Source: Spirochaetia bacterium (GTDB taxonomy: Bacteria > Spirochaetota > Spirochaetia > CADAEX01). From it: a stretch of DNA of 64,000 nucleotides. Where the stretch lies: the NCBI GenBank assembly GCA_017535435.1, contig JAFXTY010000050.1:5211-69210 (forward strand), given 5' to 3'. Shown one piece after another: positions 550 to 52,833 of the stretch (position 1 is its first letter; each line of letters opens with the position of its first letter). The position numbers were made by a program, and so were the translations under genes. The notes below the pieces were generated by a model. It made no database searches and was not told the DNA's origin. It was given only the letters and a program-made list of their open reading frames with translations.

Positions 550-882
550 TTACTGATGGCGTTTTTGGAGGATTGTAATAAGGTGAAGAACCGCCTCTTG
601 GTCGGTTTCGTCCAGGGTTTGAAAGACCTTGAGCAGCTTGCGGTATTTGGGCGGCAGGGAATCAATTAAGGCTTTTGTAGAAGAATCGCCTGTCATCAGG
701 TATTCCACCGAAACCCCAAGGGTTTGGGCAATCTTGACTGCATTATCAGCCGTGGGCAGTGAGTTATGACCGGTCAGGTAGTTTGCCAGCGTATTCCTGC
801 TGATTCCACATTTGACGGCCAGTTCTTTTATCTGTAGACCTTGGTATTCCAGCTCTGATTTTAAATTCTCCTTGAAACTCAT
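550..882 (-). CDS. XRE-family helix-turn-helix transcriptional regulator
   Basis: 110 aa. N-terminal LQIKELAVKCGISRNTLANYLTGHNSLPTADNAVKIAQTLGVSVEYL is a canonical HTH_XRE (Cro/C1) DNA-binding domain. Divergent from the AT-rich secreted-protein block. Confidence 0.75.
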   Translation of the reverse strand: MSFKENLKSELEYQGLQIKELAVKCGISRNTLANYLTGHNSLPTADNAVKIAQTLGVSVEYLMTGDSSTKALIDSLPPKYRKLLKVFQTLDETDQEAVLHLITILQKRHQ

Positions 883-2759: not shown

Positions 2760-3722
2760 ATGATTAATGTTAAACCCACCAAGTGCGTTTTATTGCTTTT
2801 CCTCCTCCTTCTCTCCCTCTTTTCCTGCAAAGCAGAGAACAAAATCCAGACTATTGCACAGCAGGTGTCGGAAGAAATCATGGAGCAGTATGAGCCGCTG
2901 GAAGGCGTGATGACACTGGTGGCAGATGCAAAGACTGGCGAGGTCATTGCCAGCGTGGACTTGGGCGGGACAGGCGATAATAGGTCAGAAACTTATACCT
3001 ATGAGCCAGGCTCGGTATTCAAGATTTTCAGCATAAGCTCAGCAATGTTCCTGCCAAATGGAATAACATCTGATTCCAAATTCAATTGCGAGGGTTTTTA
3101 TGACAAAGTAAAGGGCAATCCGATCAAATGTATAAAAGTCCATGGAGAAATTGATACTGGTGACATAATCAAATATTCATGTTACTCTGGCACTTGCTCT
3201 GCAGTAGAGACGGTCACAGACAAAGAATTACACTTTATGCTGAGCCAGTTTGGTTTTAGGGTACTGCCGCCTGAAGAATGGTCTGAGCGCTCGAAATATA
3301 CTGTTGCCCTTGGGCAAGGTATTGCTGTTACTGTCAAGCAGATGGTCAAAGCAGCTACTGTCTTTGCAAATCATGGAATGCTGGGTGCTGGCGAGATGGA
3401 GGTGGTTTCGCCAAAGGTTGCTGATGATATGCTGCTTATGATGGAAAAAGCAACTCAGCCGGATGGTATTGCCAGGCTGCATGGAGTAAAAGATTGCCGT
3501 GTTGCAATTGTGCCTGGAACCGCCCAGTGGTATGACCCAGAAACAAAAACCTACTCCGACAACAAGTTTGTTGCCTCTGCTTTGGCCATATTCCCCGTCG
3601 AAGAACCCAGATACATAGTCTATAACGTAGTTCTGCATCCCTCAAAGGGTGGAATAACCACTGGTACTGGTATCTGTGTTCCTGCCGTTGGAAAGATTAT
3701 AAATGAAGTAATAAGGAAATAA
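2760..3722 (+). CDS. lipoprotein with penicillin-binding-protein transpeptidase-like domain, truncated and degenerate
   Basis: Lipobox LFSC. The segment MTLVADAKTGEVIASVD...YEPGSVFKIF matches the class B PBP TGEI...EPGSxFK (SxxK) region. There is no N-terminal dimerisation domain and no clean SxN or KTG boxes (VPGTAQ in place of KTGT). Only 320 aa. Confidence 0.6.
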   Translation: MINVKPTKCVLLLFLLLLSLFSCKAENKIQTIAQQVSEEIMEQYEPLEGVMTLVADAKTGEVIASVDLGGTGDNRSETYTYEPGSVFKIFSISSAMFLPNGITSDSKFNCEGFYDKVKGNPIKCIKVHGEIDTGDIIKYSCYSGTCSAVETVTDKELHFMLSQFGFRVLPPEEWSERSKYTVALGQGIAVTVKQMVKAATVFANHGMLGAGEMEVVSPKVADDMLLMMEKATQPDGIARLHGVKDCRVAIVPGTAQWYDPETKTYSDNKFVASALAIFPVEEPRYIVYNVVLHPSKGGITTGTGICVPAVGKIINEVIRK

Positions 3723-4334: not shown

Positions 4335-5300
4335 TCAAGCTCTTCCTTTCTTCACCATAACCTCGTAGAGGAATACGGGGAACAGGGTCTCCTGCACCTC
4401 GGTGCGGACACTTCGGAAAAGCTTGTCGTATCGGGCGCAGGTGGCCATTATTTTTTCCAGGTCAGCAGTGGTGTACCGCTGGGCACCTGCGGTATGGGTG
4501 GTCTGACCACGCTTTGTGGTGACACCGTTCTTAAGGCAGGCTTCGTAGGAGCCAACACCCTGGTCCATCATGGTGCGCACGCCCAGCATACGCCGCAGCT
4601 GCCATATAAGGCCGCCCAACAGCTGTATGGGGGCTCCGTCCGATGACATCATCAGGTTCTTTGCAATCTCGGTAGCCTTCTCCAGGGTGCCCACCAATAG
4701 CTGGTCATAGAGAGTGAATACGTTCTCCTCTTTGCCGTTGAAGAGCATCTCCTCAATCGCTTCCAGGGTTATGGGCTCCTTGCTGTCGAAGAACAGAGCC
4801 AGCTTGTCGCACTCGTTCTTAACAGAAAGTGTATTGGCATCGCAGTTTCCCGCTATGAATGCAGCAGCATCGGAATCGATGGGAGTTCCCAGCCTGCGGA
4901 AATAGTTCTGGATATAGCTCCGCATCTGGGGCTCCTTAAGTTCCCAGAACACCTTCTCTTCCCCCACCGCCTTCTTAAGCTTTGCATCCACCTTCATGCC
5001 GCTGTCGGTAAAGATAAGCACAGCATCCTCGGAGGGCTTCTTCAGGTACTGCAGGAACAGGTCTATATCCTTCTTCTTGAGCTCTGCAGTATCATTAATG
5101 AATATAAGTTTGAAACTTGAGAACATAGAGAGGCTTTCCGCTGTCCCTATCACGTCATTCATATTGGAATCGTATGGATAGAAGGTGTACTCCTCGATCT
5201 CATCACCATACTGTTTCTTGATTTCTGTGCGGATTGAATCTATGTATGCTTTTTTCTCCCCCAGCTCCGGGCCGGTAAGGAGATAGCTGGGTTTAATCAT
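4335..5300 (-). CDS. holA: DNA polymerase III delta subunit
   Basis: 321 aa. Length and N-terminal YLLTGPE...K. pattern fit HolA. Placement is typical next to housekeeping genes. Confidence 0.65.
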   Translation of the reverse strand: MIKPSYLLTGPELGEKKAYIDSIRTEIKKQYGDEIEEYTFYPYDSNMNDVIGTAESLSMFSSFKLIFINDTAELKKKDIDLFLQYLKKPSEDAVLIFTDSGMKVDAKLKKAVGEEKVFWELKEPQMRSYIQNYFRRLGTPIDSDAAAFIAGNCDANTLSVKNECDKLALFFDSKEPITLEAIEEMLFNGKEENVFTLYDQLLVGTLEKATEIAKNLMMSSDGAPIQLLGGLIWQLRRMLGVRTMMDQGVGSYEACLKNGVTTKRGQTTHTAGAQRYTTADLEKIMATCARYDKLFRSVRTEVQETLFPVFLYEVMVKKGRA

Positions 5301-5563
5301 TCTTCTTCAAACTTGTTCTCGAAGATCTTGCTGATTGCTTCTACAGCTTCGGCCTCGTCGGCTCCGTCGGCCTTGAGGGTAAGGACAGTCTGATATGTGG
5401 CGGCAAGGGTAATTATGCCCATAATGGACTTTGCATTGATCTCATCGTCATCCTTTGACAGTGTGATGTCGGACTTGAACTTGTTGGCAACTTTGACAAT
5501 CATTGCAGCAGGTCTTGCGTGGATTCCCGCCCTGTTCCCAATTACGACTTGTTTACTGATCAT
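5297..5563 (-). CDS. ptsH: phosphocarrier protein HPr
   Basis: 88 aa. GIHARPA (His15 region) and KSIMGI (Ser46 region) motifs. Confidence 0.9.
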   Translation of the reverse strand: MISKQVVIGNRAGIHARPAAMIVKVANKFKSDITLSKDDDEINAKSIMGIITLAATYQTVLTLKADGADEAEAVEAISKIFENKFEEE

Positions 5564-5565
5564 AT

Positions 5566-6561
5566 TTATTCCTCGCCGAATTTATGTTCATTGTTGTAAA
5601 ATGAGGAGATATTCTTGGCCTCGAGCCACTGAATAGTCCTCCGGTTGAATTCCTTTGCCGAGAAGTAGCCCATGCTCTTGAGCCTTTCGTTCATGGCGCC
5701 GGTCTCAATTATGATAGGAATATTCCGTCCAGGCTTCACTGGGATGGTGAGGGATGGAATCTGCACTCCCAGAATCTCGGTGGTGTTCTCGTCGGTTCCA
5801 AGCCTGTTGTACTCTTTCTCGTTGTCCCATTCCTCCAGGTTAACCACCAGCTGTATCTCCTTCTGGTCCCGGACTGCTCCGATTCCATAAAGATGTGATA
5901 TGTTGATGATTCCCAGCCCCCTGATCTCCATGTGATGGGCCAGCTGCTGGTTGCCGCCCCGGCCTACCAGGCTGTTGCCATAGAGGTTCCTGATTTCCAC
6001 CACATCATCGGCAATAAGGCGGTGGCCCCGCTCTATAAGCTCCAGGGCAGTCTCACTCTTTCCTACACCGCTCTTTCCCTGGATAAGGATTCCCATTCCG
6101 TATACCTCCACCAGGTCGCCGTAAATAAGCTGTTTGGGTGCGAATACAGAGCCCAGGATACGGGAAAGGCGCCGGGTGAGCTCGGTGGTGGAAAGGGGGG
6201 TGACCAGCAGCGGGCAGTTGGCCTTGGATGCTATTGCCTTGATTTTCTCGCCAGGCTGAAGGCCGGTGGAGAAGATGCAGCATGGTATCTGGTATGAGAA
6301 GAATTTTTCTATGTTCTGGAAATCGAAGTTCTGCTCTTTCTCCATCTTCTCGATGAAGTTGGATTCTCTGATTCCGAAGATCTGGATACGCTGATAAGTG
6401 AAGTTGTCGAAGAAACCTATGAGGGCCAGACCGGGGCGGTCGAGAAAGGACATAGTTATCTCGTTCCCCAGCCCCTGGCGGCCTGCAACGCATTTCAGCG
6501 ACAGAGCATCATTTTCTTTCAGGTCCAGATCAAGGAGATCCAGGACTGTAAAATTCTTCAT
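5566..6561 (-). CDS. hprK: HPr kinase/phosphorylase
   Basis: 331 aa. Walker A GKSGVGKSETALELIERGHRLIADD and the C-terminal HprK signature. Directly upstream of ptsH. Confidence 0.9.
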   Translation of the reverse strand: MKNFTVLDLLDLDLKENDALSLKCVAGRQGLGNEITMSFLDRPGLALIGFFDNFTYQRIQIFGIRESNFIEKMEKEQNFDFQNIEKFFSYQIPCCIFSTGLQPGEKIKAIASKANCPLLVTPLSTTELTRRLSRILGSVFAPKQLIYGDLVEVYGMGILIQGKSGVGKSETALELIERGHRLIADDVVEIRNLYGNSLVGRGGNQQLAHHMEIRGLGIINISHLYGIGAVRDQKEIQLVVNLEEWDNEKEYNRLGTDENTTEILGVQIPSLTIPVKPGRNIPIIIETGAMNERLKSMGYFSAKEFNRRTIQWLEAKNISSFYNNEHKFGEE

Positions 6562-41797: not shown

Positions 41798-42415
41798 ATG
41801 TCAGAAATACCCACAATACTCAAAAAGCTGGAAGGAACATCTGAGCAACAGATCCTTGTAGAGATAGAAGCTGCTTATGAAAGGATTGATCAGGAGCAGA
41901 AGGGCTGGTATGAGAAATCAGACTTCCTTTGTCCCCAGGGCTGCGGCGACTGCTGTGCCCATTTTGAGCCAGATCTTATGGTTTCGGAAGCACTTTATAT
42001 GGGAGCCTGGCTCTTGGAACATCAGCCAGTCCTGGCCCACAGTGTTGCAGAGGAAAAATTCCCCTTTTATGATAAAGAACATTGCCAGTTCTTCAACCCC
42101 GATTCCTCATTGCACTGCTCCATCTATGGAGGCAGGCCTTTCATCTGCCGCCTTTTCGGGGCCAGCGGTGTCAGGTCAAAGTCCGGGGAACTGGTGTGGA
42201 AACCCTGCCGGTTCTATCCATCGGAGCAGCTGGCAATGCATATTCCCCCTTTGATGCATAGGCAATATTCTTCAGAAGAACTTATGCAGATCTTCGGGAC
42301 AGTTCCCCCTGATATGGGAGCCCTTATGTCCGGGACAGATGCAGACACAGTCCTCCTCAGGGATATCCTGCCTAAGATTATAAGACATCTTCTTTTTATC
42401 ATTGGAATGAACTAA
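41798..42415 (+). CDS. YkgJ-family Cys-cluster protein
   Basis: 205 aa. CPQGCGDCCAHFEP (CxxCxxCC) plus downstream Cys pairs. Confidence 0.55.
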   Translation: MSEIPTILKKLEGTSEQQILVEIEAAYERIDQEQKGWYEKSDFLCPQGCGDCCAHFEPDLMVSEALYMGAWLLEHQPVLAHSVAEEKFPFYDKEHCQFFNPDSSLHCSIYGGRPFICRLFGASGVRSKSGELVWKPCRFYPSEQLAMHIPPLMHRQYSSEELMQIFGTVPPDMGALMSGTDADTVLLRDILPKIIRHLLFIIGMN

Positions 42416-43506: not shown

Positions 43507-44868
43507 TCATTTTATTCGTAAAACCAGATCCTTAAAGGAATTACCGCGGTCGAACTCGTTCTTGAAAAGCTCAAAGGAGGTGGCTCCCGGGGAGAAGAGA
43601 ACTATATCGCCGCTCTCGGAACCCTTGTATGCAGCATCCAGGGCCTCTGCCAGTGTGCTGTATGGGCCGTTGTAACGGCATCCATGGGCATCCAGTTCGG
43701 CAATCATCTTGTCAGTGGCACTGCCCCTGAGCAGGTACATCTTCTTGGCTGCCTTTGCAATCTCAGGCAGAAGGTCGAACATCAGGTTCTTGTCGGTGCC
43801 TCCGGCGATAAGCACCACCGGCGCCTCAAAGCTTTTTACTGCGGCCAGGCAGGCCTGTGGGATGGTGGCAGTGGTGTCGTTGTAGAATTTTCTTCCGTTA
43901 TATTCCCGGACAAACTCAAGCCGGTGGGGAATCCCCTTGAAGTCGGCCAGCGCATTCATAATATCGGTGCTCTTGAAACCGTAGAGGTACATGGTGGCGG
44001 CAGCAATCAGCAGGTTTCTCCTGTTGTGTTCTCCCGGGATAAGAAGCTTTTCCGGCAGTATCTGCTCTTTCTTGCCATTCAGTTTTATGTAGCCTTTCTT
44101 GCCCTCAAGCCAGATCTGCTCCTCCTTGCCCATGTCAGAGCCGGAGAACCAGATGGGGTGTGCCGGAGTCTCGTCAAAGAACTGCTTCCCGTAGTCGTCA
44201 TCAAAATTGCAAAGGGTGTACTGATTCTTGGTCTGGCTCTGGTAGATCACTTTCTTGTCGTCGGCATACTCCTGCACCGAATTGTACCGGTTCTGATGCT
44301 CGTGCATTATGTTGGTGATTACCGAAACCACCGGCTTCAGAAGCCCCTTCCCCCGGATGTCGGCCAGCTGCCAGGAGGAGAGCTCCAGGATCACCAGAGA
44401 CTTGTCGGTAAGCTCTTCAAGGAAGGAAAGAGGCGAGATAGTGATATTGCCACCCAGGAAAGTATCGCTCTTAAGCTTTTTCATGCCGTGGTAGATGGCA
44501 GATACAGTGGTGGATTTTCCCTTGCTGCCAGTGACTGCAATGACATCGCCCTTGAACTCAGAGAGGAATATGGAGATGTCGGTTTCTATCCTTTTCGCTT
44601 TGGCCAAGTAAGGAGAAGTAAGTGGTACGGCAGGGTTCTTGATTACGATATCAGCATTCTCGAAATCGGACATCTCGTGCTTCTCAAGCACATAACGGAT
44701 ATCGTATTCAGAGAGCATATCCATGGAAGGCTTAAGTATCTGGGCAGAGCGAAGGTCTGTGACTGTAACCTTGGCCCCTTTGGAAGCGAAGAATTTGGCT
44801 GCTGCCATGCCACCTCCGTTGAGACCCAGTCCCATTATGGTGATTTTCTTGCCGGTGTAGTCTTCCAT
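43507..44868 (-). CDS. murD: UDP-N-acetylmuramoyl-L-alanine--D-glutamate ligase
   Basis: Start at ATG 44868 with GAGGGG RBS. KKITIMGLGLNGGGMAAAKFFASKGAKVTVTD N-terminal Rossmann signature. VTGSKGKST P-loop. Confidence 0.85.
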   Translation of the reverse strand: MEDYTGKKITIMGLGLNGGGMAAAKFFASKGAKVTVTDLRSAQILKPSMDMLSEYDIRYVLEKHEMSDFENADIVIKNPAVPLTSPYLAKAKRIETDISIFLSEFKGDVIAVTGSKGKSTTVSAIYHGMKKLKSDTFLGGNITISPLSFLEELTDKSLVILELSSWQLADIRGKGLLKPVVSVITNIMHEHQNRYNSVQEYADDKKVIYQSQTKNQYTLCNFDDDYGKQFFDETPAHPIWFSGSDMGKEEQIWLEGKKGYIKLNGKKEQILPEKLLIPGEHNRRNLLIAAATMYLYGFKSTDIMNALADFKGIPHRLEFVREYNGRKFYNDTTATIPQACLAAVKSFEAPVVLIAGGTDKNLMFDLLPEIAKAAKKMYLLRGSATDKMIAELDAHGCRYNGPYSTLAEALDAAYKGSESGDIVLFSPGATSFELFKNEFDRGNSFKDLVLRIK

Positions 44869-44937
44869 TGTCCCCTCACAAAAATAATTATAGCACACTT
44901 AAAATAAATGATATATACTAATAATTGGGAAGTTAAA

Positions 44938-45249
44938 ATGGATTATCAAGATTATGAAGAAACATTAGAAATACTTGCTGATAAACGTTTGTCCAAAGAT
45001 TTAAAGATTGGAATTCAGCAGATTAAAGAAAATAAACTCGTTGATTGGTCAGAATTCGAAAAAGGCCTCGCTATGTTTACTCCTGATTTTATGGAGGATG
45101 GGCGGATCCAACCAGAGTTATTGAAAAAAAGTGGAGATTGGAATTCGGAGCAGGAAACCCTGTACCTCTGTTCAATACCAGGAATGAGAGAATCACTCCT
45201 TGAGGCACGCAAAGAACCTTTGGAAGAAAGTGTTGAGGATATAGACTGA
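44938..45249 (+). CDS. small acidic protein with two Phd/YefM-antitoxin-like C-terminal motifs
   Basis: Start at ATG 44938 with GGGAAG RBS. Contains EETLEILADKRLSKDLKIGIQQI and EQETLYLCSIPGMRESLLEAR. Both resemble the YefM ...[20 protein letters not shown] segment. AT-rich. Confidence 0.45.
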   Translation: MDYQDYEETLEILADKRLSKDLKIGIQQIKENKLVDWSEFEKGLAMFTPDFMEDGRIQPELLKKSGDWNSEQETLYLCSIPGMRESLLEARKEPLEESVEDID

Positions 45250-45265
45250 TAATGTGGACACATTA
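45250..45265. promoter_or_regulatory. 7-bp inverted repeat taatgtg-ga-cacatta in the 80-nt gap upstream of the GIY-YIG gene
   Basis: Read directly. Possible operator. Coordinates +/-2. Confidence 0.2.
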
Positions 45266-45330
45266 TGAATAAAAATATTCTACCATGTCATTAAAACAAG
45301 CGGCGGAATTATAAACCTTGGAGGAAATAA

Positions 45331-46203
45331 ATGAATACTGAAATAATTGCAACAATTCAGCAGCTTCTTAAAGGACGAAACTTAGAATTTGATAATGCTA
45401 AGAAGATAAAACTAGTCCGTCATAAAGATTCAAGACCCATGGATGAGCGGAAGATACAGGGTGAACCATATACAGGTTCACTATATAATTTATATCGAAA
45501 TGAATATGAAAGATTTTTGAAATATCAGAATGAACAACGATCAGCTAATTTTATAAATGTTGAATATATTGTTGCATTTATTGGAGAAGATGGTACAGAT
45601 TCAAGGTTTATTGGAGTTTATAAAAATAATGGTGTAGTTGGTAAATTTGAAGATCATCATATATTTGATTTTGAAGAAGTACCTGGTTTTGAAATATTAA
45701 AAGAGCGAGTTGTTGTCGATTGGGGTAAAAATGCTATTTCGTGGCATCAGTGGTATGAAAATGAAAAGGCCGTGATAAGAATTGACAGAGGTCTAATAGA
45801 AAACGATATTCCTCTTTTTATAAGCTATAATGATGTTTTGCTTACATATCGACAATTAAAAACAATTTTTGATAAAGAAATAGCGGATTGGAAAAGACGT
45901 CTTGATTGTTGTAATTGCATTTATTTGATTCAGGATACAAATAATGGGAAGCAATATATCGGATCCACCTACAATAAAGAAGGTATTTGGGGACGCTGGA
46001 AAGATTATGCAGAATCAGGACACGGGGATGATGTGCTTCTAAAAAAAGAAATTGATAAAGATCCATTATATGCCATGAAATATTTTCATTGGATAATTCT
46101 CGAATTATTGCCTTTGAAAATATCAGAAAATGAAGCAATAGATAGAGAAAAATTATGGAAAAGAAAACTATGTTCTTTGTCTTTGGGATATAATAAAAAT
46201 TAG
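45331..46203 (+). CDS. GIY-YIG nuclease-domain protein with unknown N-terminal domain of about 190 aa
   Basis: 290 aa. C-terminal CIYLIQDTNNGKQYIGSTYNKEGIWGRWKDYAESGHGDD carries the GIY...YIG...R...E/H layout of the GIY-YIG fold. RBS GGAGGA. AT-rich relative to flanks. Confidence 0.6.
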   Translation: MNTEIIATIQQLLKGRNLEFDNAKKIKLVRHKDSRPMDERKIQGEPYTGSLYNLYRNEYERFLKYQNEQRSANFINVEYIVAFIGEDGTDSRFIGVYKNNGVVGKFEDHHIFDFEEVPGFEILKERVVVDWGKNAISWHQWYENEKAVIRIDRGLIENDIPLFISYNDVLLTYRQLKTIFDKEIADWKRRLDCCNCIYLIQDTNNGKQYIGSTYNKEGIWGRWKDYAESGHGDDVLLKKEIDKDPLYAMKYFHWIILELLPLKISENEAIDREKLWKRKLCSLSLGYNKN

Positions 46204-46220
46204 AAATATAGAAATAATAT

Positions 46221-46913
46221 ATGCTAATCGATGCACACACCCATATTGTTCCAGACTCCGATGACATCACCGTTATCTATAATTCGGTGACTGCAGAGGA
46301 CTGGGAGCGCATTCCTGCAAGCCCGAATATCATCCCATTCTACGGCATACATCCATGGCATGCAAAAAGTTGTTCAAAAATTGAACTTGTGGCTTTGGGG
46401 CAGTTTATCAAGGAGAAAAAGGCAGCAGACATCAGGTTCGGAATAGGGGAGACTGGCCTTGATAAAACAGATAGAAATCCCGATTTTGAAGACCAGAAAG
46501 GCTTTTTCGCCTTCCATCTCTGGCTGGCTCAGCAGTATCAGGTGCCCGTTGCTGTACACTGTGTCCACGCATGGGGTCCTTTTATGGAAATCCTCTCGGA
46601 GGTGCCGGATAATCTTCCTGTCTTGATGCACTCCTATTCAGGCTCTCTGGAAACGGCAAAAACTCTTCTTAAACGCAACACCTGGTTCTCTTTCTCCCCG
46701 TCGGTACAGCGCATCGAAAAACAGACCGAAGTGCTCCGGCAGATTCCTCTTGAAAACATGTTCCTTGAGACCGATTTTACCGAGATTCCATCATCAGGTT
46801 ACCGGGAGACTTTAGAAGAGCTTTATAACTTTGCCGCCGGGGTAAAAAATGTAACTCCCGAAACAGTAAAAAAATATATTGAAAATAATATTAAAACACT
46901 ATTTTCCCCTTGA
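46221..46913 (+). CDS. TatD-family metal-dependent hydrolase
   Basis: 230 aa. MLIDAHTHI N-terminal His pair and later His/Glu/Asp ligands (VHCVHAW, LETDF). Confidence 0.75.
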   Translation: MLIDAHTHIVPDSDDITVIYNSVTAEDWERIPASPNIIPFYGIHPWHAKSCSKIELVALGQFIKEKKAADIRFGIGETGLDKTDRNPDFEDQKGFFAFHLWLAQQYQVPVAVHCVHAWGPFMEILSEVPDNLPVLMHSYSGSLETAKTLLKRNTWFSFSPSVQRIEKQTEVLRQIPLENMFLETDFTEIPSSGYRETLEELYNFAAGVKNVTPETVKKYIENNIKTLFSP

Positions 46914-48555: not shown

Positions 48556-51500
48556 ATGCAGAGCGTAGGAATCAATATTGGTTCTTCCAGCTTGAAGATA
48601 GCTTGCGTTGCAGATGGTAAGCTTTTGTGGGCTGAGAGTATTCCCCACGAGGGCAATTTCCACGATGCGGCAGAAAAAATATTAGAAGCTCATCCCATTG
48701 AAAAAGGGGCAAGAGCATTGGCAACCGGAACAGAGGGACGTTTTCTCTTCTCTGTCAACAAGACTGTGGAGCCTCTCTGTATTGAAGAGGCCCTGAAGGA
48801 GCTTAAGCTCAAGGCAGATGCCATTGTCTCCCTGGGCGGTGAGGATCTGGTAGTCTACACCCTCAATGACGAGGGAAGAATCATAAACAACTTCTCCGGC
48901 AGCAAGTGTGCCTCCGGAACTGGAGAGTTCTTCAAGCAGCAGCTTGCCCGTATGGACATGAAGCTGGAGGATGTGAACGGTGTTCCAGACACAGCCCGTA
49001 TACTTGAGCTTTCAACAAGATGCTCGGTATTCATGAAGAGCGACTGCACCCACCGGCTCAACAAGGGCGAGGCAACTAAAGAGGATATTGTCCTTTCCCT
49101 CAGCAATGTGATGGCTGTGAAGGTCATCGACTTCCTCAAGAAGGCAAGAATAAGCAAGGGCAAGGTCATCCTTGTGGGTGGAATCACCAGGAACCGCCAT
49201 ATCATCCGGTTCATCAAGGAGAAGGCTCCTGATATCGAATTTATCATCCCGGAGGAGGCATCTTACTTCGAGGCCCTGGGTGCCGCATATCTGGCAGCTA
49301 AGGATGGAAGCCCGATGCCGGAGCCAGGCAAGCTCATCACAAAGAATAAGGTAAGCTTCACCCACCTTGAGAGCCTTAAGACACAGCTTTCCAAGGTCAC
49401 ATACTTCCCTGCAAAGCATGGCAAGACAGTTGCAGGCAGAGAATACATACTGGGAGTGGACGGCGGTTCCACAACCACCAAGGCATGTCTTATCGACATG
49501 GAGACAGACGAGATAACTGCATCCTTCTACGGCCGTACCCATGGCGACCCGGTGAAGGCTCTCAAGCAGTGTCTCCAGGAAATCAAAAAGCAGGTCAAAG
49601 CCGATATCGGTGACGGCAAAATCAATATAACACTGGCATCAACCACAGGCTCATCCCGGGAGATTCTGGGAGTGTTCCTGGAGACACCGGCTGTATACAA
49701 CGAGATTATCGCCCACACCGAGGGAACCACATACTTCTCCAACGATGTGGACACTATCTTCGAGATCGGCGGTCAGGATGCAAAATATGTGCTCCTCAAG
49801 AACAAGGTTCCTATCGACTATGCCATGAACGAGGCCTGCTCTGCAGGTACAGGATCCTTCCTTGAGGAATCTGCCTCCGGAGACCTTAACATTGCCCATG
49901 CATGGGAGATCGGGGACATTGCCCTTGAGGCAGAGAACCCGCTTAAGTTCGGCGAGCACTGCTCTGCCTTCATCAACTCAGATATCCGCAAGGCTATCCA
50001 GCAGGGTGCAACACGGGCCGACATCACAGCAGGTATTGTCACATCCATAGTCTCCAACTACCTTAACAGAGTTGTGGGAAACAGGACTGTGGGCAACAAG
50101 ATATTCCTCCAGGGTGGAGTTGCCAAGAACAAGGCTATCCCACTGGCCTTCGCACTCCTTTTAGGCAAGGAGATTCTGGTGCCGCCAGATCCTGAGCTCA
50201 TGGGCTGCTTCGGCGTAGGCCTTCTGGCAAAGCAGAAGTTCAAAGAGGGGCTTATTTCCAAGGCAACCTTCGACATCGACAAGATCCTTGAGACTGAGAT
50301 CATCTATGAGAGCGAGTTCAAGTGCAAATCCTGCGAGAACCAGTGCCCTATCCGTATCCTCAAGGTAAACGGCAACAAGTATATGTTCGGCGGCCGGTGC
50401 TCCAAGTACACCAACTCCAGGAAGAAGAAGCTGTTCGACGAGTCCAAGATCCGGAACTTTGTGGATGAGCGCAACGACCTTATGTTCAAGACCTTTGCTC
50501 CGGACGAGGCCAGCTTTGTGAAGAAGAGGGACTACACTGTAGGTATTCCCAAGGCATTCTCTGTCTATACGCTCTATCCCTTCTACTCCTGGTATTTCCA
50601 CCAGCTGGGAATAAAGACAGTGCTTTCAGACAAGGTGCCCCACTCCGGTGTTGCCAGGGTTGAGTCCACCTACTGTTTCCCTGCGGAGATTGCCCACGGT
50701 GCGGTTCAGGATATCCTGGACAAGCATACAGACTACATATTCCTGCCTCATTACCGGGACATGCCCAGCCACGAGAGCGACATACACGCAAACTTCTGTC
50801 CTATTACCCAGAGCCTGCCATACTACATAAGAAAGGCTTTCCCCGAGATTCCCGAGGAGAAGATCCTTTCACCTGTAGTAAGCTTCAGAACTGGACTGGA
50901 CAAGGCTATAGAGTTCTTTATCCAGTTGGGAGAGAAACTGGGATTCACTGCTGCCGAAGCTAGAGATGCCTTCAATGTGGCACTTAAGAAGCAGAATGAG
51001 TATCAGGAGGCTGCATTCAAGCTGGGCGAGGAAGCTTTGGAATATGCCAAGAGTCAGAAACAGCCTGTCATTGCACTTCTGGGCCGTCCATATAACGCAT
51101 TTGCCAAAGAGGCAAACATCGGTATCCCACGGAAGTTCACAAGCCGTGGCAACACAGTCATTCCGTTTGATATCCTGCCTATAGGCAACAAGAAAATATT
51201 CCCGAATATGTACTGGTACTATGGCCAGAAGGATATGCACACTGCCTTCAATATGAAGGAGAACCCTAACATATTTGTCACCTGGGTCAGCAACTTCTCC
51301 TGTGCACCAGACTCTTTCATGCTCCACTACCTTAAGTGGATAATGGGGACCAAGCCGTTCCTGGTGCTGGAGCTGGATTCCCACTCTGCAGATGCAGGTG
51401 TGGACACCCGTGTTGAGGCATTCCTGGATATTATCGAGGGCTACCGCCTGAAGTACAGCGGAAAGGACGAGGAGCGCTATGACAACGGCCTCCGGTTTGT

Positions 51501-52833
51501 GAACGACGGCAAGAGCGAGCCCCATCTCCATAACGAGCATACAGGTGAGGATATTGCTATCCGCGGCAACAAGAAGGTGAAGATTCTCCTCTCCAACATG
51601 GGTGATATCTCTGCCAGGTCCATGGCTGCCACAGCCCAGTCCCTGGGCTTCAATGCCGAGGCTGTTCCTATTCCGACACCACGGACACTGCGTTTTGCCC
51701 GGAACCATGCATCTGGAAAGGAGTGTGTTCCTTCCCTGCTGCTTCTGGGTTCAATGCTTGAGTATTTTGCATCTGACAAATACGACAAGAGTACCACATA
51801 TATGATATTTGTCCCCATAACTACAGGGCCATGCCGTACAGGCCAGTACTTTGTCTTCTACCAGAACCTGTTCCGGGACCTTAGGCTTGAGAACGTGGTT
51901 GTATTCACCTTGAGTGCAGACCACTCATATTCAGAACTTGGGGCAGGATTCTCCAAGATTATGTGGTGGGCATTGTGTGCCGCCGACTATCTTAAGGATA
52001 TTCAGACAGTTCTCCGTACCTGTGCCAAGGACAGAACATATGCCATGGCCGAGGTTCAGGAAGGTGTCAAGTATGTCCTTGAGGAGGCCAGAAAGAGCTG
52101 GAAGAACATAGTTCCGGCCCTTAAGGTGTTTGCTGACAGGGTCAAGAAAATTCCGCTAAAGAAAGATCCAGCCACCTGTCCGAAGGTTCTGGTTGTGGGC
52201 GAAATCTATGTGCGCCGTGATGACTATGCAGTGGACGAGATTATCAGATCCTGTGCAGATAAAGGCATTATAGCCAAAGTTTCCGGCATAGGGGAGTGGA
52301 TCCACTATACCGACTTTGTGCAGGAGTACTTCCTTAAGCGGGAGCGGACAGTATTCCCATGGTATAAGAAGATATTCAGCGACAACACCAAAAAGCTGCT
52401 TGTTCTTAAGCTTGCAGAAGCCTGGAAGGAGTCTACCGAGGCTAAGATAAGAGAGGCACTGGAGCCCTGTGGCCTGATACCAAAGTCGCCTCACGATATG
52501 AAGAAGATTATGGCCAATACCCTCAAGTTTGTAAGCTACGAGCTTAACTCCGAGATCTCCATCTCCAGCGGTGCAGCTGCTACAGCTATGGAAGAAGGTT
52601 ATTCCGGCGTTGTTAATATATCTCCATTTGCATGTCTTATCGGACGTGTCATCGAAGGGCTCTATATGCCATATGCACGGCAGCACAAGTATCCAGCTAT
52701 CTCCATAGAGATTGACGGCAACCAGCTGCCTCCGAACATTATCAATAAGCTTAACATCTTTATGCTCAATGTCATCAGGTACAAAGAGAATCCAGGTGTA
52801 GCAGAGCTGATTGATTACGAGGATGAGAAGTAG
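48556..52833 (+). CDS. giant CoA-substrate-specific enzyme activase (two BadF/BadG/BcrA/BcrD ATPase domains) fused to a 2-hydroxyacyl-CoA-dehydratase D-component-like domain
   Basis: 1425 aa. Two acetate/sugar-kinase-fold ATPase domains (MQSVGINIGSSSLKIA..., second LGVDGGSTTTKACLI...). Cys pairs and a dehydratase-like C-terminal region of about 800 aa. Confidence 0.8.
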   Translation: MQSVGINIGSSSLKIACVADGKLLWAESIPHEGNFHDAAEKILEAHPIEKGARALATGTEGRFLFSVNKTVEPLCIEEALKELKLKADAIVSLGGEDLVVYTLNDEGRIINNFSGSKCASGTGEFFKQQLARMDMKLEDVNGVPDTARILELSTRCSVFMKSDCTHRLNKGEATKEDIVLSLSNVMAVKVIDFLKKARISKGKVILVGGITRNRHIIRFIKEKAPDIEFIIPEEASYFEALGAAYLAAKDGSPMPEPGKLITKNKVSFTHLESLKTQLSKVTYFPAKHGKTVAGREYILGVDGGSTTTKACLIDMETDEITASFYGRTHGDPVKALKQCLQEIKKQVKADIGDGKINITLASTTGSSREILGVFLETPAVYNEIIAHTEGTTYFSNDVDTIFEIGGQDAKYVLLKNKVPIDYAMNEACSAGTGSFLEESASGDLNIAHAWEIGDIALEAENPLKFGEHCSAFINSDIRKAIQQGATRADITAGIVTSIVSNYLNRVVGNRTVGNKIFLQGGVAKNKAIPLAFALLLGKEILVPPDPELMGCFGVGLLAKQKFKEGLISKATFDIDKILETEIIYESEFKCKSCENQCPIRILKVNGNKYMFGGRCSKYTNSRKKKLFDESKIRNFVDERNDLMFKTFAPDEASFVKKRDYTVGIPKAFSVYTLYPFYSWYFHQLGIKTVLSDKVPHSGVARVESTYCFPAEIAHGAVQDILDKHTDYIFLPHYRDMPSHESDIHANFCPITQSLPYYIRKAFPEIPEEKILSPVVSFRTGLDKAIEFFIQLGEKLGFTAAEARDAFNVALKKQNEYQEAAFKLGEEALEYAKSQKQPVIALLGRPYNAFAKEANIGIPRKFTSRGNTVIPFDILPIGNKKIFPNMYWYYGQKDMHTAFNMKENPNIFVTWVSNFSCAPDSFMLHYLKWIMGTKPFLVLELDSHSADAGVDTRVEAFLDIIEGYRLKYSGKDEERYDNGLRFVNDGKSEPHLHNEHTGEDIAIRGNKKVKILLSNMGDISARSMAATAQSLGFNAEAVPIPTPRTLRFARNHASGKECVPSLLLLGSMLEYFASDKYDKSTTYMIFVPITTGPCRTGQYFVFYQNLFRDLRLENVVVFTLSADHSYSELGAGFSKIMWWALCAADYLKDIQTVLRTCAKDRTYAMAEVQEGVKYVLEEARKSWKNIVPALKVFADRVKKIPLKKDPATCPKVLVVGEIYVRRDDYAVDEIIRSCADKGIIAKVSGIGEWIHYTDFVQEYFLKRERTVFPWYKKIFSDNTKKLLVLKLAEAWKESTEAKIREALEPCGLIPKSPHDMKKIMANTLKFVSYELNSEISISSGAAATAMEEGYSGVVNISPFACLIGRVIEGLYMPYARQHKYPAISIEIDGNQLPPNIINKLNIFMLNVIRYKENPGVAELIDYEDEK

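Follow-up and report, generated by a model that had tools for sequence, protein, structure and literature searches.

The window analyzed in this study, a stretch of 64,000 nucleotides (nt) from a ruminant-gut Spirochaetia bacterium (GenBank assembly GCA_017535435.1, contig JAFXTY010000050.1, positions 5,211 to 69,210 of the forward strand), carries an AT-rich insert of ~1.3 kb at the junction of the core genes murD and tatD. The insert contains two open reading frames (ORFs) on the plus strand, where ORF A encodes a small acidic protein and uzuA encodes a protein of 290 amino acids (aa) related to the Uzume anti-phage system; murD and tatD are divergent around them. A preliminary description had proposed an AT-rich two-gene island between murD and tatD, and this was borne out by Pfam, which confirmed both flanking genes, and by the base composition. 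The guanine-plus-cytosine (GC) content of positions 44876-46219 (1344 nt) was 31.6% against 47.9% in the whole window, the minimum among all segments of the same length (z = -4.5). Values of 0.29-0.39 extended over ~44800-46300, with ~0.47-0.57 in the flanks on both sides, and the GC content at third codon positions was 0.196 in uzuA and 0.327 in ORF A, compared with 0.659 in murD and 0.472 in tatD.

Native murD-proximal sequence was traced to ~44897 through the conserved columns of the junction alignment, and tatD sequence begins at 46221. The two inserted genes are separated by a spacer of 81 nt. No tRNA gene was found in the window and no integrase or transposase gene in the island; apart from chance matches, the cassette was neither flanked by direct repeats nor terminated by inverted ones. 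The start of tatD lies 17 nt past the stop of uzuA (46204-46225) and the native upstream sequence of tatD is gone; therefore, tatD is probably expressed by read-through from the island. The coordinates of all features are collected in Table 1.

Table 1. Features of the murD-tatD junction, in positions of the window.
Feature	Position	Strand	Remarks
murD	43507..44868	-	Mur ligase domains (Pfam); left core-gene border of the hotspot
Inserted cassette	44898..46220	.	Aligns with the empty site L013 up to 44875 and again from 46220
ORF A	44938..45249	+	103 aa; alternative ATG at 44908 gives 113 aa
Tail 1 (Phd/YefM, ParE/RelE-partnered)	44944..45069	+	Residues 3-44; C-terminal toxin-binding part of a 90-aa antitoxin
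Tail 2 (VapB, AbrB/MazE-type)	45046..45135	+	C-terminal motif WSEFEKGLAMFTPDFMEDGRIQP; FTPDFMEDGRxQP
Tail 3 (YefM, YoeB-partnered)	45097..45246	+	Residues 54-102; C-terminal part of an 80-aa YefM antitoxin
yoeB relic	45252..45272	+	ATG TGG ACA CAT TAT GAA TAA (MWTHYE, stop); first two codons joined to last five
uzuA	45331..46203	+	290 aa; Shine-Dalgarno sequence GGAGG at 45320-45324
UzuA N-terminal alpha/beta domain	45331..45900	+	~190 aa; AlphaFold (AF2) pLDDT 82.9-87.8
UzuA GIY-YIG nuclease domain	45913..46200	+	Y198, Y209, R222, E273, and N288 intact
tatD (TatD-family hydrolase)	46221..46913	+	Pfam TatD_DNase, E 1e-37; right core-gene border

The 290-aa protein was a full-length match to the UzuA model PDLC03973 of PADLOC (E 1.4e-78, 262 bits), with residues 7-290 aligned to positions 3-278 of the 278 in the model, and a second UzuA model, PDLC03974, matched with an E value of 8e-47. 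The same search, which had been suggested as a check in the preliminary description, returned nothing for ORF A. Every testable feature that defines Uzume was found in the protein, namely the profile, the GIY-YIG catalytic residues, and the single-gene organization. Judged by its sequence, it is an ordinary member of the UzuA family, the Uzume single-gene anti-phage system, and is predicted to confer phage resistance. A total of 642 close homologues was found, along with 1534 cluster representatives at E <= 1e-3 and 860 at E <= 1e-10. Relatives occurred in 420 plasmid records (Klebsiella, Enterobacter, and Bacillus thuringiensis) compared with only three phage records, and uzuA was AT-rich relative to its host wherever sampled. 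Uzume genes of the Bacillus cereus group reside mostly on plasmids. The system is attributed to Millman et al. (2022) and described as a single gene with GIY-YIG homology and an unsolved mechanism; the name Uzume is not mentioned in the Millman preprint, and a literature search on the name UzuA returned unrelated papers only. Relatives in phage and plasmid collections were annotated as "GIY-YIG nuclease family protein" or misannotated as "excinuclease ABC subunit C", and PHROG 26160 (function not assigned) matched residues 75-290 of UzuA with an E value of 6e-28.

The C-terminal GIY-YIG module anticipated for the 290-aa protein was recovered by three comparisons. The Pfam GIY-YIG family matched residues 195-280 (E 3.9e-5, 24.3 bits against a gathering cut-off of 22.6). 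An AF2 model built from 26 homologues, with a mean predicted local distance difference test (pLDDT) score of 87.8, superposed through its C-terminal domain on the catalytic domain of I-TevI (Foldseek matches 1mk0 and 1ln0, probability 1.0, TMt 0.69, 28-31% identity). Additionally, a profile of 50 diverse UzuA members aligned with residues 3-90 of I-TevI (E 4.9e-9), where the GIY and YIG motifs, R27, E75, and N90 were in register. Among the 26 homologues, Y198, Y209, R222, and E273 were invariant and N288 nearly so. The domain is I-TevI-like by these alignments, has all of the catalytic residues, and is predicted to act as a DNA-cleaving effector.

The N-terminal domain of ~190 aa had been called unrecognized, which holds for Pfam, where no family was found in any of the 50 diverse members, but not for PADLOC, where the UzuA model of a named defense family covers the domain. 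No Foldseek match at E <= 0.001 was found in the PDB or BFVD for either the full-length or the N-domain-only models, and I-TevI was the sole match of the family profile among PDB sequences. Weaker fold matches were scattered over YTH, Lon-N, cereblon-type (PUA-like) folds, and PD-T4-3, and they included one phage protein of the "PD-(D/E)XK superfamily" (E 8.5e-3, TMq 0.28). A second active nuclease in this domain was considered and appeared unlikely, since none of its family-conserved residues is D, E, or K.

Loci with this junction were retrieved from related genomes by means of MurD, and every flanking protein was then located in them; these loci are given here by L numbers. Several kinds of occupants were observed at the junction. 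In five Spirochaetia genomes (L013, L015, L016, L018, and L019), the junction was empty, with a gap of only 48-90 nt between tatD and murD orthologues. The murD orthologues in related genomes were 74-93% identical, and in two of the five genomes with an empty site, MurD was 92-93% identical to that of the window. ORF A together with uzuA occupied the junction in L014 and L001-L008. In L017, the site held an intact vapB (76 aa, MazE/AbrB-type) and vapC (132 aa, PIN domain) on the minus strand (5260-5888) instead of Uzume. In L050-L055, it held a gene for a 119-aa, three-tailed relative of ORF A that overlaps a gene for a 170-aa alpha/beta-hydrolase (L050:3053-3924). Four genes were found in L056-L059 (L056:1-3000; L057:157-4135): a 315-aa protein without a family, a methyltransferase/specificity fusion of 652-671 aa that resembles restriction-modification (RM) proteins with N6-methyltransferase, Eco57I, and specificity domains, an ORF A-like protein of 68 aa with two tails, and a second UzuA of 263 aa that is 30% identical to the window UzuA and matched the PADLOC UzuA model with an E value of 1.2e-58. 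Hence, as the proposed comparison of this junction across related genomes revealed, the island is absent from five of them and replaced by other cargo in others, and the murD-tatD junction is a small variable hotspot for defense and toxin-antitoxin (TA) genes. The same junction among sister genomes, either empty or filled by Uzume, by a second Uzume with an RM-like pair, or by vapBC, provides a clean natural experiment. In L050 and L054 (2830-3015), an upstream mini-ORF ending in ...SERDIRKGKYRSASEVFSDLRRKL was also observed, which resembles yet another antitoxin tail.

The cassette also stood out by its DNA identity among otherwise diverged genomes. In comparisons of the window with L014, L001, L005, and L004, uzuA was 99.9-100% identical, while murD was ~83% and tatD 77-80% identical; the spacer was 98.8% identical, and ORF A either 97.4% or 89.7%. 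The change in identity was abrupt, at ~44882 or ~45184 on the left and at ~46225 on the right. The absence of any difference in 873 nt of uzuA was incompatible even with the divergence of ORF A (Poisson P ~1e-10). The near-identity of uzuA amid flanks of ~80% therefore indicates that the cassette moved between species-level lineages very recently, and that the part reaching from the last portion of ORF A to the end of uzuA was the latest to move. Since the exchanged DNA ends in highly conserved stretches, namely the start of murD, the start of tatD, and an antitoxin tail, an exchange by short-homology recombination is suggested. The cassette would accordingly spread between species by recombination, with left ends in tail 3 or at the murD start and a right end at the tatD start. 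Both a presence/absence polymorphism (five empty junctions and three alternative cargos) and a foreign composition, by which genomic islands are recognized, were found here. Together with the uzuA identity and the PADLOC assignment, these results uphold the earlier proposal of a horizontally acquired defense element with a nuclease effector.

ORF A proved to be of composite origin. Its product has an isoelectric point of 4.3, 26 D and E residues against 13 K and R residues, and a mass of ~12 kDa, in agreement with the acidic character first noted for it. Two YefM/Phd-like motifs had been reported in this protein; both proved real (Pfam PhdYeFM_antitox, PF02604, E 0.002, 18.3 bits against a cut-off of 29.8, model positions 44-70 of 74), but a third tail of the VapB type, located between them, had been overlooked. 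Tail 1 shared 69% identity over 42 aa with residues 45-86 of P0138 (tblastn), whose gene adjoins a ParE_toxin gene, and 78% nucleotide identity with L063. Tail 2 matched the NCBIfam VapB model (E 0.002, model positions 42-70 of 76), and, over 44 aa, residues ~23-66 shared 41% identity with the L017 VapB, the occupant of the same site beside a PIN-domain VapC. Tail 3 was 69% identical over 49 aa to P0127 and P0134, 89% identical over the overlap to P0137, and 81% identical in nucleotides to L072, and the partner genes of these antitoxins belong to YoeB_toxin. Alignments of ORF A to genuine antitoxins began at antitoxin residues 30-45, and no N-terminal dimerization or DNA-binding domain was found in ORF A. 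Similarly, neither PADLOC nor PHROGs returned any match to it.

Relatives of ORF A were rare, with ~20 among 5.8 billion proteins. Orthologues at the murD-tatD locus were 62-91% identical, and the other relatives were ordinary Phd/YefM antitoxins of 80-90 aa that match only half of ORF A. Shorter forms with two tails exist as well (P0124-P0126), and the N-terminal extension of the 113-aa form, ten codons in length, looks like part of a strand from a truncated Phd N-terminal domain. The composite ORF A, these extra Phd-like codons, and the further tail in the upstream mini-ORF mark the murD-tatD site as a graveyard of TA modules. Of the features of type II TA systems, a toxin-binding tail was present in ORF A; an N-terminal dimerization and DNA-binding domain and an adjacent cognate toxin gene were absent. 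The three-tailed ORF A is the only unusual part of the cassette, whose main gene is already catalogued, and to our knowledge, though no exhaustive search was made, there is no precedent for a three-tail antitoxin fusion under selection.

A remnant of one of the toxin genes was found in the spacer. At the relic, 24 of 24 nt agreed with the 3'-terminal part of the L072 yoeB gene (2983-3006). In this locus, a genuine yefM-yoeB pair is present, where yoeB starts with ATGTGG overlapping the yefM stop and ends in ...ATGTGGACACATTATGAATAA (AGG ATG TGG ACA CAT TAT GAA TAA). Because the match is exact and ATGTGG occurs at both ends of yoeB, the toxin gene was evidently lost by a deletion between the two 6-bp ATGTGG repeats, leaving a relic of seven codons. 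The preliminary description had placed an inverted repeat in this gap, and the repeat exists, with arms of 8 bp (ATAATGTG at 45249-45256 and CACATTAT at 45259-45266) separated by 2 nt. It lies inside the yoeB relic, however, and thus is not a regulatory feature in itself; a regulatory hairpin was dismissed, as its stability was like that of shuffled sequences (z = -0.22) and the repeat is explained by the relic. No Rfam match and no terminator-like site were found in the 81-nt spacer.

Selection on ORF A was estimated from the ratio of non-synonymous to synonymous substitutions (dN/dS) by the Nei-Gojobori method. Between the window and L005, the ratio was 0.20, from 16 changes of each kind on 59 synonymous and 250 non-synonymous sites (Fisher p 2.6e-5). 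Ratios of 0.23, 0.135 (p 6e-12), and 0.20 were obtained against L014, the 119-aa form of L050, and the 68-aa form, respectively; for comparison, the ratio was 0.136 in tatD and 0.056 in murD. The reading frame was kept across a 14-codon insertion or deletion between the window and the L050 form, which share 62% identity, and a gene of the ORF A type was retained in three cassette types. The low ratios, the preserved frame, and the retention in three cassettes argue for a working protein under purifying selection rather than a scar.

The history of ORF A is probably as follows. Successive TA modules of phd-parE-like, vapBC-like, and yefM-yoeB type occupied the site and lost their toxin genes, the toxin-binding tails were joined in one frame, and the fusion has been kept by selection. 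Given the purifying selection on the fusion, ORF A probably retains a function as an orphan antitoxin, binding toxins of the ParE/RelE, VapC, and YoeB types in trans. A stronger version, in which ORF A is a poly-antitoxin selected for neutralizing several classes of toxins in trans, is a tentative and rather doubtful proposal. If true, incoming plasmids and phages could no longer addict the cell or kill it through their TA systems, since the poly-antitoxin would immunize it, and the resident toxin genes of the hotspot could for this reason have been deleted and replaced by defense cargo such as Uzume. A protein that neutralizes several toxin families would also represent a novel kind of anti-addiction or anti-TA factor and a simple tool for studying toxin-antitoxin specificity.

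ORF A could instead be a non-functional recombination scar of repeated TA cassette turnover that is open by chance, which is somewhat easier to credit than the poly-antitoxin, yet still on the unlikely side. Its three parts are all fragments of antitoxin genes whose toxin genes are gone, a yoeB relic is present, the extension of the 113-aa form is Phd-like, shorter two-tail forms occur, and the gene is confined to this locus in this lineage, with 20 matches in 5.8 billion proteins. A scar would not be expected, however, to have a significant excess of synonymous changes (dN/dS of 0.13-0.23 in four comparisons), to keep its frame through the 14-codon difference from the L050 form, or to be retained in three different cassette types. 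ORF A documents the stepwise decay of TA modules in a hotspot, including the deletion of a toxin gene between 6-bp repeats, and suggests that antitoxin tails, once fused, can be maintained by selection.

The relation between the two genes was examined through the neighbors of other UzuA homologues. In L009, L066, L068, and L070, neither the upstream neighbors (94-242 aa) nor the downstream ones resembled ORF A or one another. ORF A was therefore dropped as a conserved partner of Uzume after this all-against-all comparison of the four other contexts. The UzuA of L068 is part of an evident defense island that also contains PLD-like, AAA, and GmrSD genes. In another organism (L009:6962-7526), an intact Phd/YefM-ParE pair comes after a UzuA homologue of 71% identity, so that Uzume genes and TA modules co-localize repeatedly with no fixed arrangement. 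The unrelated neighbors elsewhere, along with the hydrolase gene that follows the ORF A-like gene in L050, indicate that uzuA is self-sufficient and ORF A an independent resident of the hotspot. The cassette is thus, with good though not complete confidence, a horizontally acquired element whose payload is a stand-alone uzuA of the Uzume type, where ORF A is a separate TA remnant and not part of Uzume. It adds a spirochete member to a known but mechanistically unsolved defense family.

Two other explanations of the cassette were weighed. The preliminary description had named a TA or abortive-infection element among its options; on this reading, ORF A would be a labile antitoxin that restrains the nuclease until infection. 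The gene order, with a small acidic antitoxin-like gene first, the purifying selection on ORF A, the placement of ORF A-like genes immediately ahead of a member of the UzuA family in two types of cassette, and their tight coupling to the downstream gene in L056 and L050 are consistent with such a pair. The tails of ORF A, however, are 41-89% identical to those of antitoxins partnered by ParE, VapC, and YoeB toxins, and the protein has no DNA-binding or dimerization domain of its own; a remnant of yoeB separates ORF A from uzuA; the gene downstream in L050 encodes an alpha/beta-hydrolase and not a nuclease; and in other taxa, the genes upstream of UzuA homologues are unrelated, with no relative of ORF A among them. 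Uzume is moreover described as a single-gene system, and PADLOC returned nothing for ORF A. The pair is very improbable on this balance, and this part of the original interpretation was abandoned.

Slightly less credible again is a selfish origin of uzuA, as a free-standing GIY-YIG homing endonuclease gene that copies itself into the murD-tatD junction of related genomes and has no role in defense. Its closest solved fold is the catalytic domain of I-TevI, with which it shares the residues Y, Y, R, E, and N, weak matches were found to homing-endonuclease models (TIGR01453, PADLOC HEase, and PHROGs 314, 7168, and 5123), and an identical gene with sharp boundaries occurs at the same site in diverged genomes. 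In contrast to GIY-YIG homing endonucleases, however, the nuclease domain is C-terminal, no NUMOD or helix-turn-helix (HTH) DNA-binding module was found in 50 family members, and uzuA is not located in an intron or a phage genome. The score of UzuA against NCBIfam TIGR01453 (group I intron endonucleases) was 24.4 bits, far below the cut-off of 56.05, and the full-length match was to the UzuA defense model. Members of the family also occur in many unrelated contexts, with the plasmid records far outnumbering those of phages, and the same site takes up unrelated cargo such as vapBC, the hydrolase, and the RM-like pair.

Several observations weigh against the reading of a stand-alone Uzume gene beside a selected TA remnant. 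In two of the three cassette types, a gene of the ORF A kind comes ahead of one of the UzuA family, and in two, L056 (2208/2209) and L050 (3412/3412), it adjoins or overlaps the next gene; a lineage-specific functional link between the two genes is therefore conceivable. A search of the 64-kb window found no cognate toxin gene for the tails of ORF A, and gene conversion from functional paralogous antitoxins could partly account for its low dN/dS. Anti-phage activity has reportedly been demonstrated for a distant member of the family only, and the role given to the N-terminal domain of UzuA is purely inferred.

The N-terminal domain is specific to the family, and its most likely role is to select the target or to sense infection. 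UzuA would cleave invading DNA through its GIY-YIG domain, with the N-terminal domain providing either the choice of target or the sensing of infection. Since no methyltransferase was found in the cassette, the host would be protected from the nuclease by one of two routes, which are about equally likely. UzuA may recognize a phage-specific feature of DNA in a type IV-like manner, by analogy with CMoRE/PD-T4-3, or it may remain inactive until infection, as in abortive infection.

Three other observations were made in the window. Positions 550-2757 form its second most AT-rich stretch (~35% GC) and contain a gene for an HTH_3/CI-like repressor (550-882, minus strand) and three plus-strand ORFs of 140, 179, and 266 aa without a Pfam family; this stretch may be another acquired element. 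A 205-aa CxxCxxCC-domain gene (41798-42415) is located between a methylenetetrahydrofolate reductase (MTHFR) gene and an exo/endo-phosphatase gene. It is present in the window, L002, and L013 and absent from otherwise collinear loci such as L001, L003, and L005, which makes it a second presence/absence polymorphism. Downstream of the cassette, positions 48556-52833 encode a 1425-aa fusion of BcrAD_BadFG ATPase and DUF2229 domains (2-hydroxyacyl-CoA dehydratase activator type), which is kept in all related loci and looks ordinary.

Defense hotspots between core genes are an established feature of defense islands. The murD-tatD junction resembles them in that a fixed, conserved junction holds alternative cargo (Uzume, RM-like, TA, or none) in related genomes, and it differs from them in its very small size (0-3.5 kb) and in that no integrase, tRNA, or flanking repeats were seen. 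The type II antitoxins YefM (with YoeB), Phd/YefM (with ParE/RelE), and VapB (with VapC) are all represented in ORF A by tails of 41-89% identity, whereas the combination of three tandem tails without an N-terminal domain or an adjacent toxin gene sets it apart from each of them. The anti-addiction role of chromosomal antitoxins, reviewed in PMC3920263, offers a reason for selection on ORF A, as a toxin-less chromosomal antitoxin could neutralize the toxins of plasmids and phages. In contrast to ORF A, the known cases are complete TA modules or single antitoxins and not fusions of tails from three families.

CMoRE/PD-T4-3 is a type IV, 5-hydroxymethylcytosine (5hmC)-dependent GIY-YIG restriction enzyme encoded by a single gene (PMC12923530). 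Like UzuA, it combines a GIY-YIG nuclease with a second, sensing domain and has no methyltransferase partner, and this analogy makes it a plausible working model. In CMoRE, however, the GIY-YIG domain, which has a "GIYxY-YIG" motif, is N-terminal and the pocket for modified cytosine C-terminal, whereas the nuclease is C-terminal in UzuA, the fold similarity is weak (Foldseek E 0.17-0.9, TM 0.21-0.27), and the PADLOC PD-T4-3 model did not match UzuA. Given this lack of homology and the reversed domain order, UzuA does not belong to PD-T4-3, and a resemblance in mechanism is possible. The closest known system is Uzume itself. The window UzuA differs from described copies in its location in a ruminant-gut spirochete, within a two-gene mini-island behind an orphan composite antitoxin, and it is only ~33% identical to the homologues on Bacillus plasmids. 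In other respects, it resembles Uzume as described: it is a full-length match to the UzuA hidden Markov model, it has the typical length of ~280-300 aa with a family-specific N-terminal domain and a C-terminal GIY-YIG domain, and it is a stand-alone gene of a kind found on mobile DNA and in variable islands.

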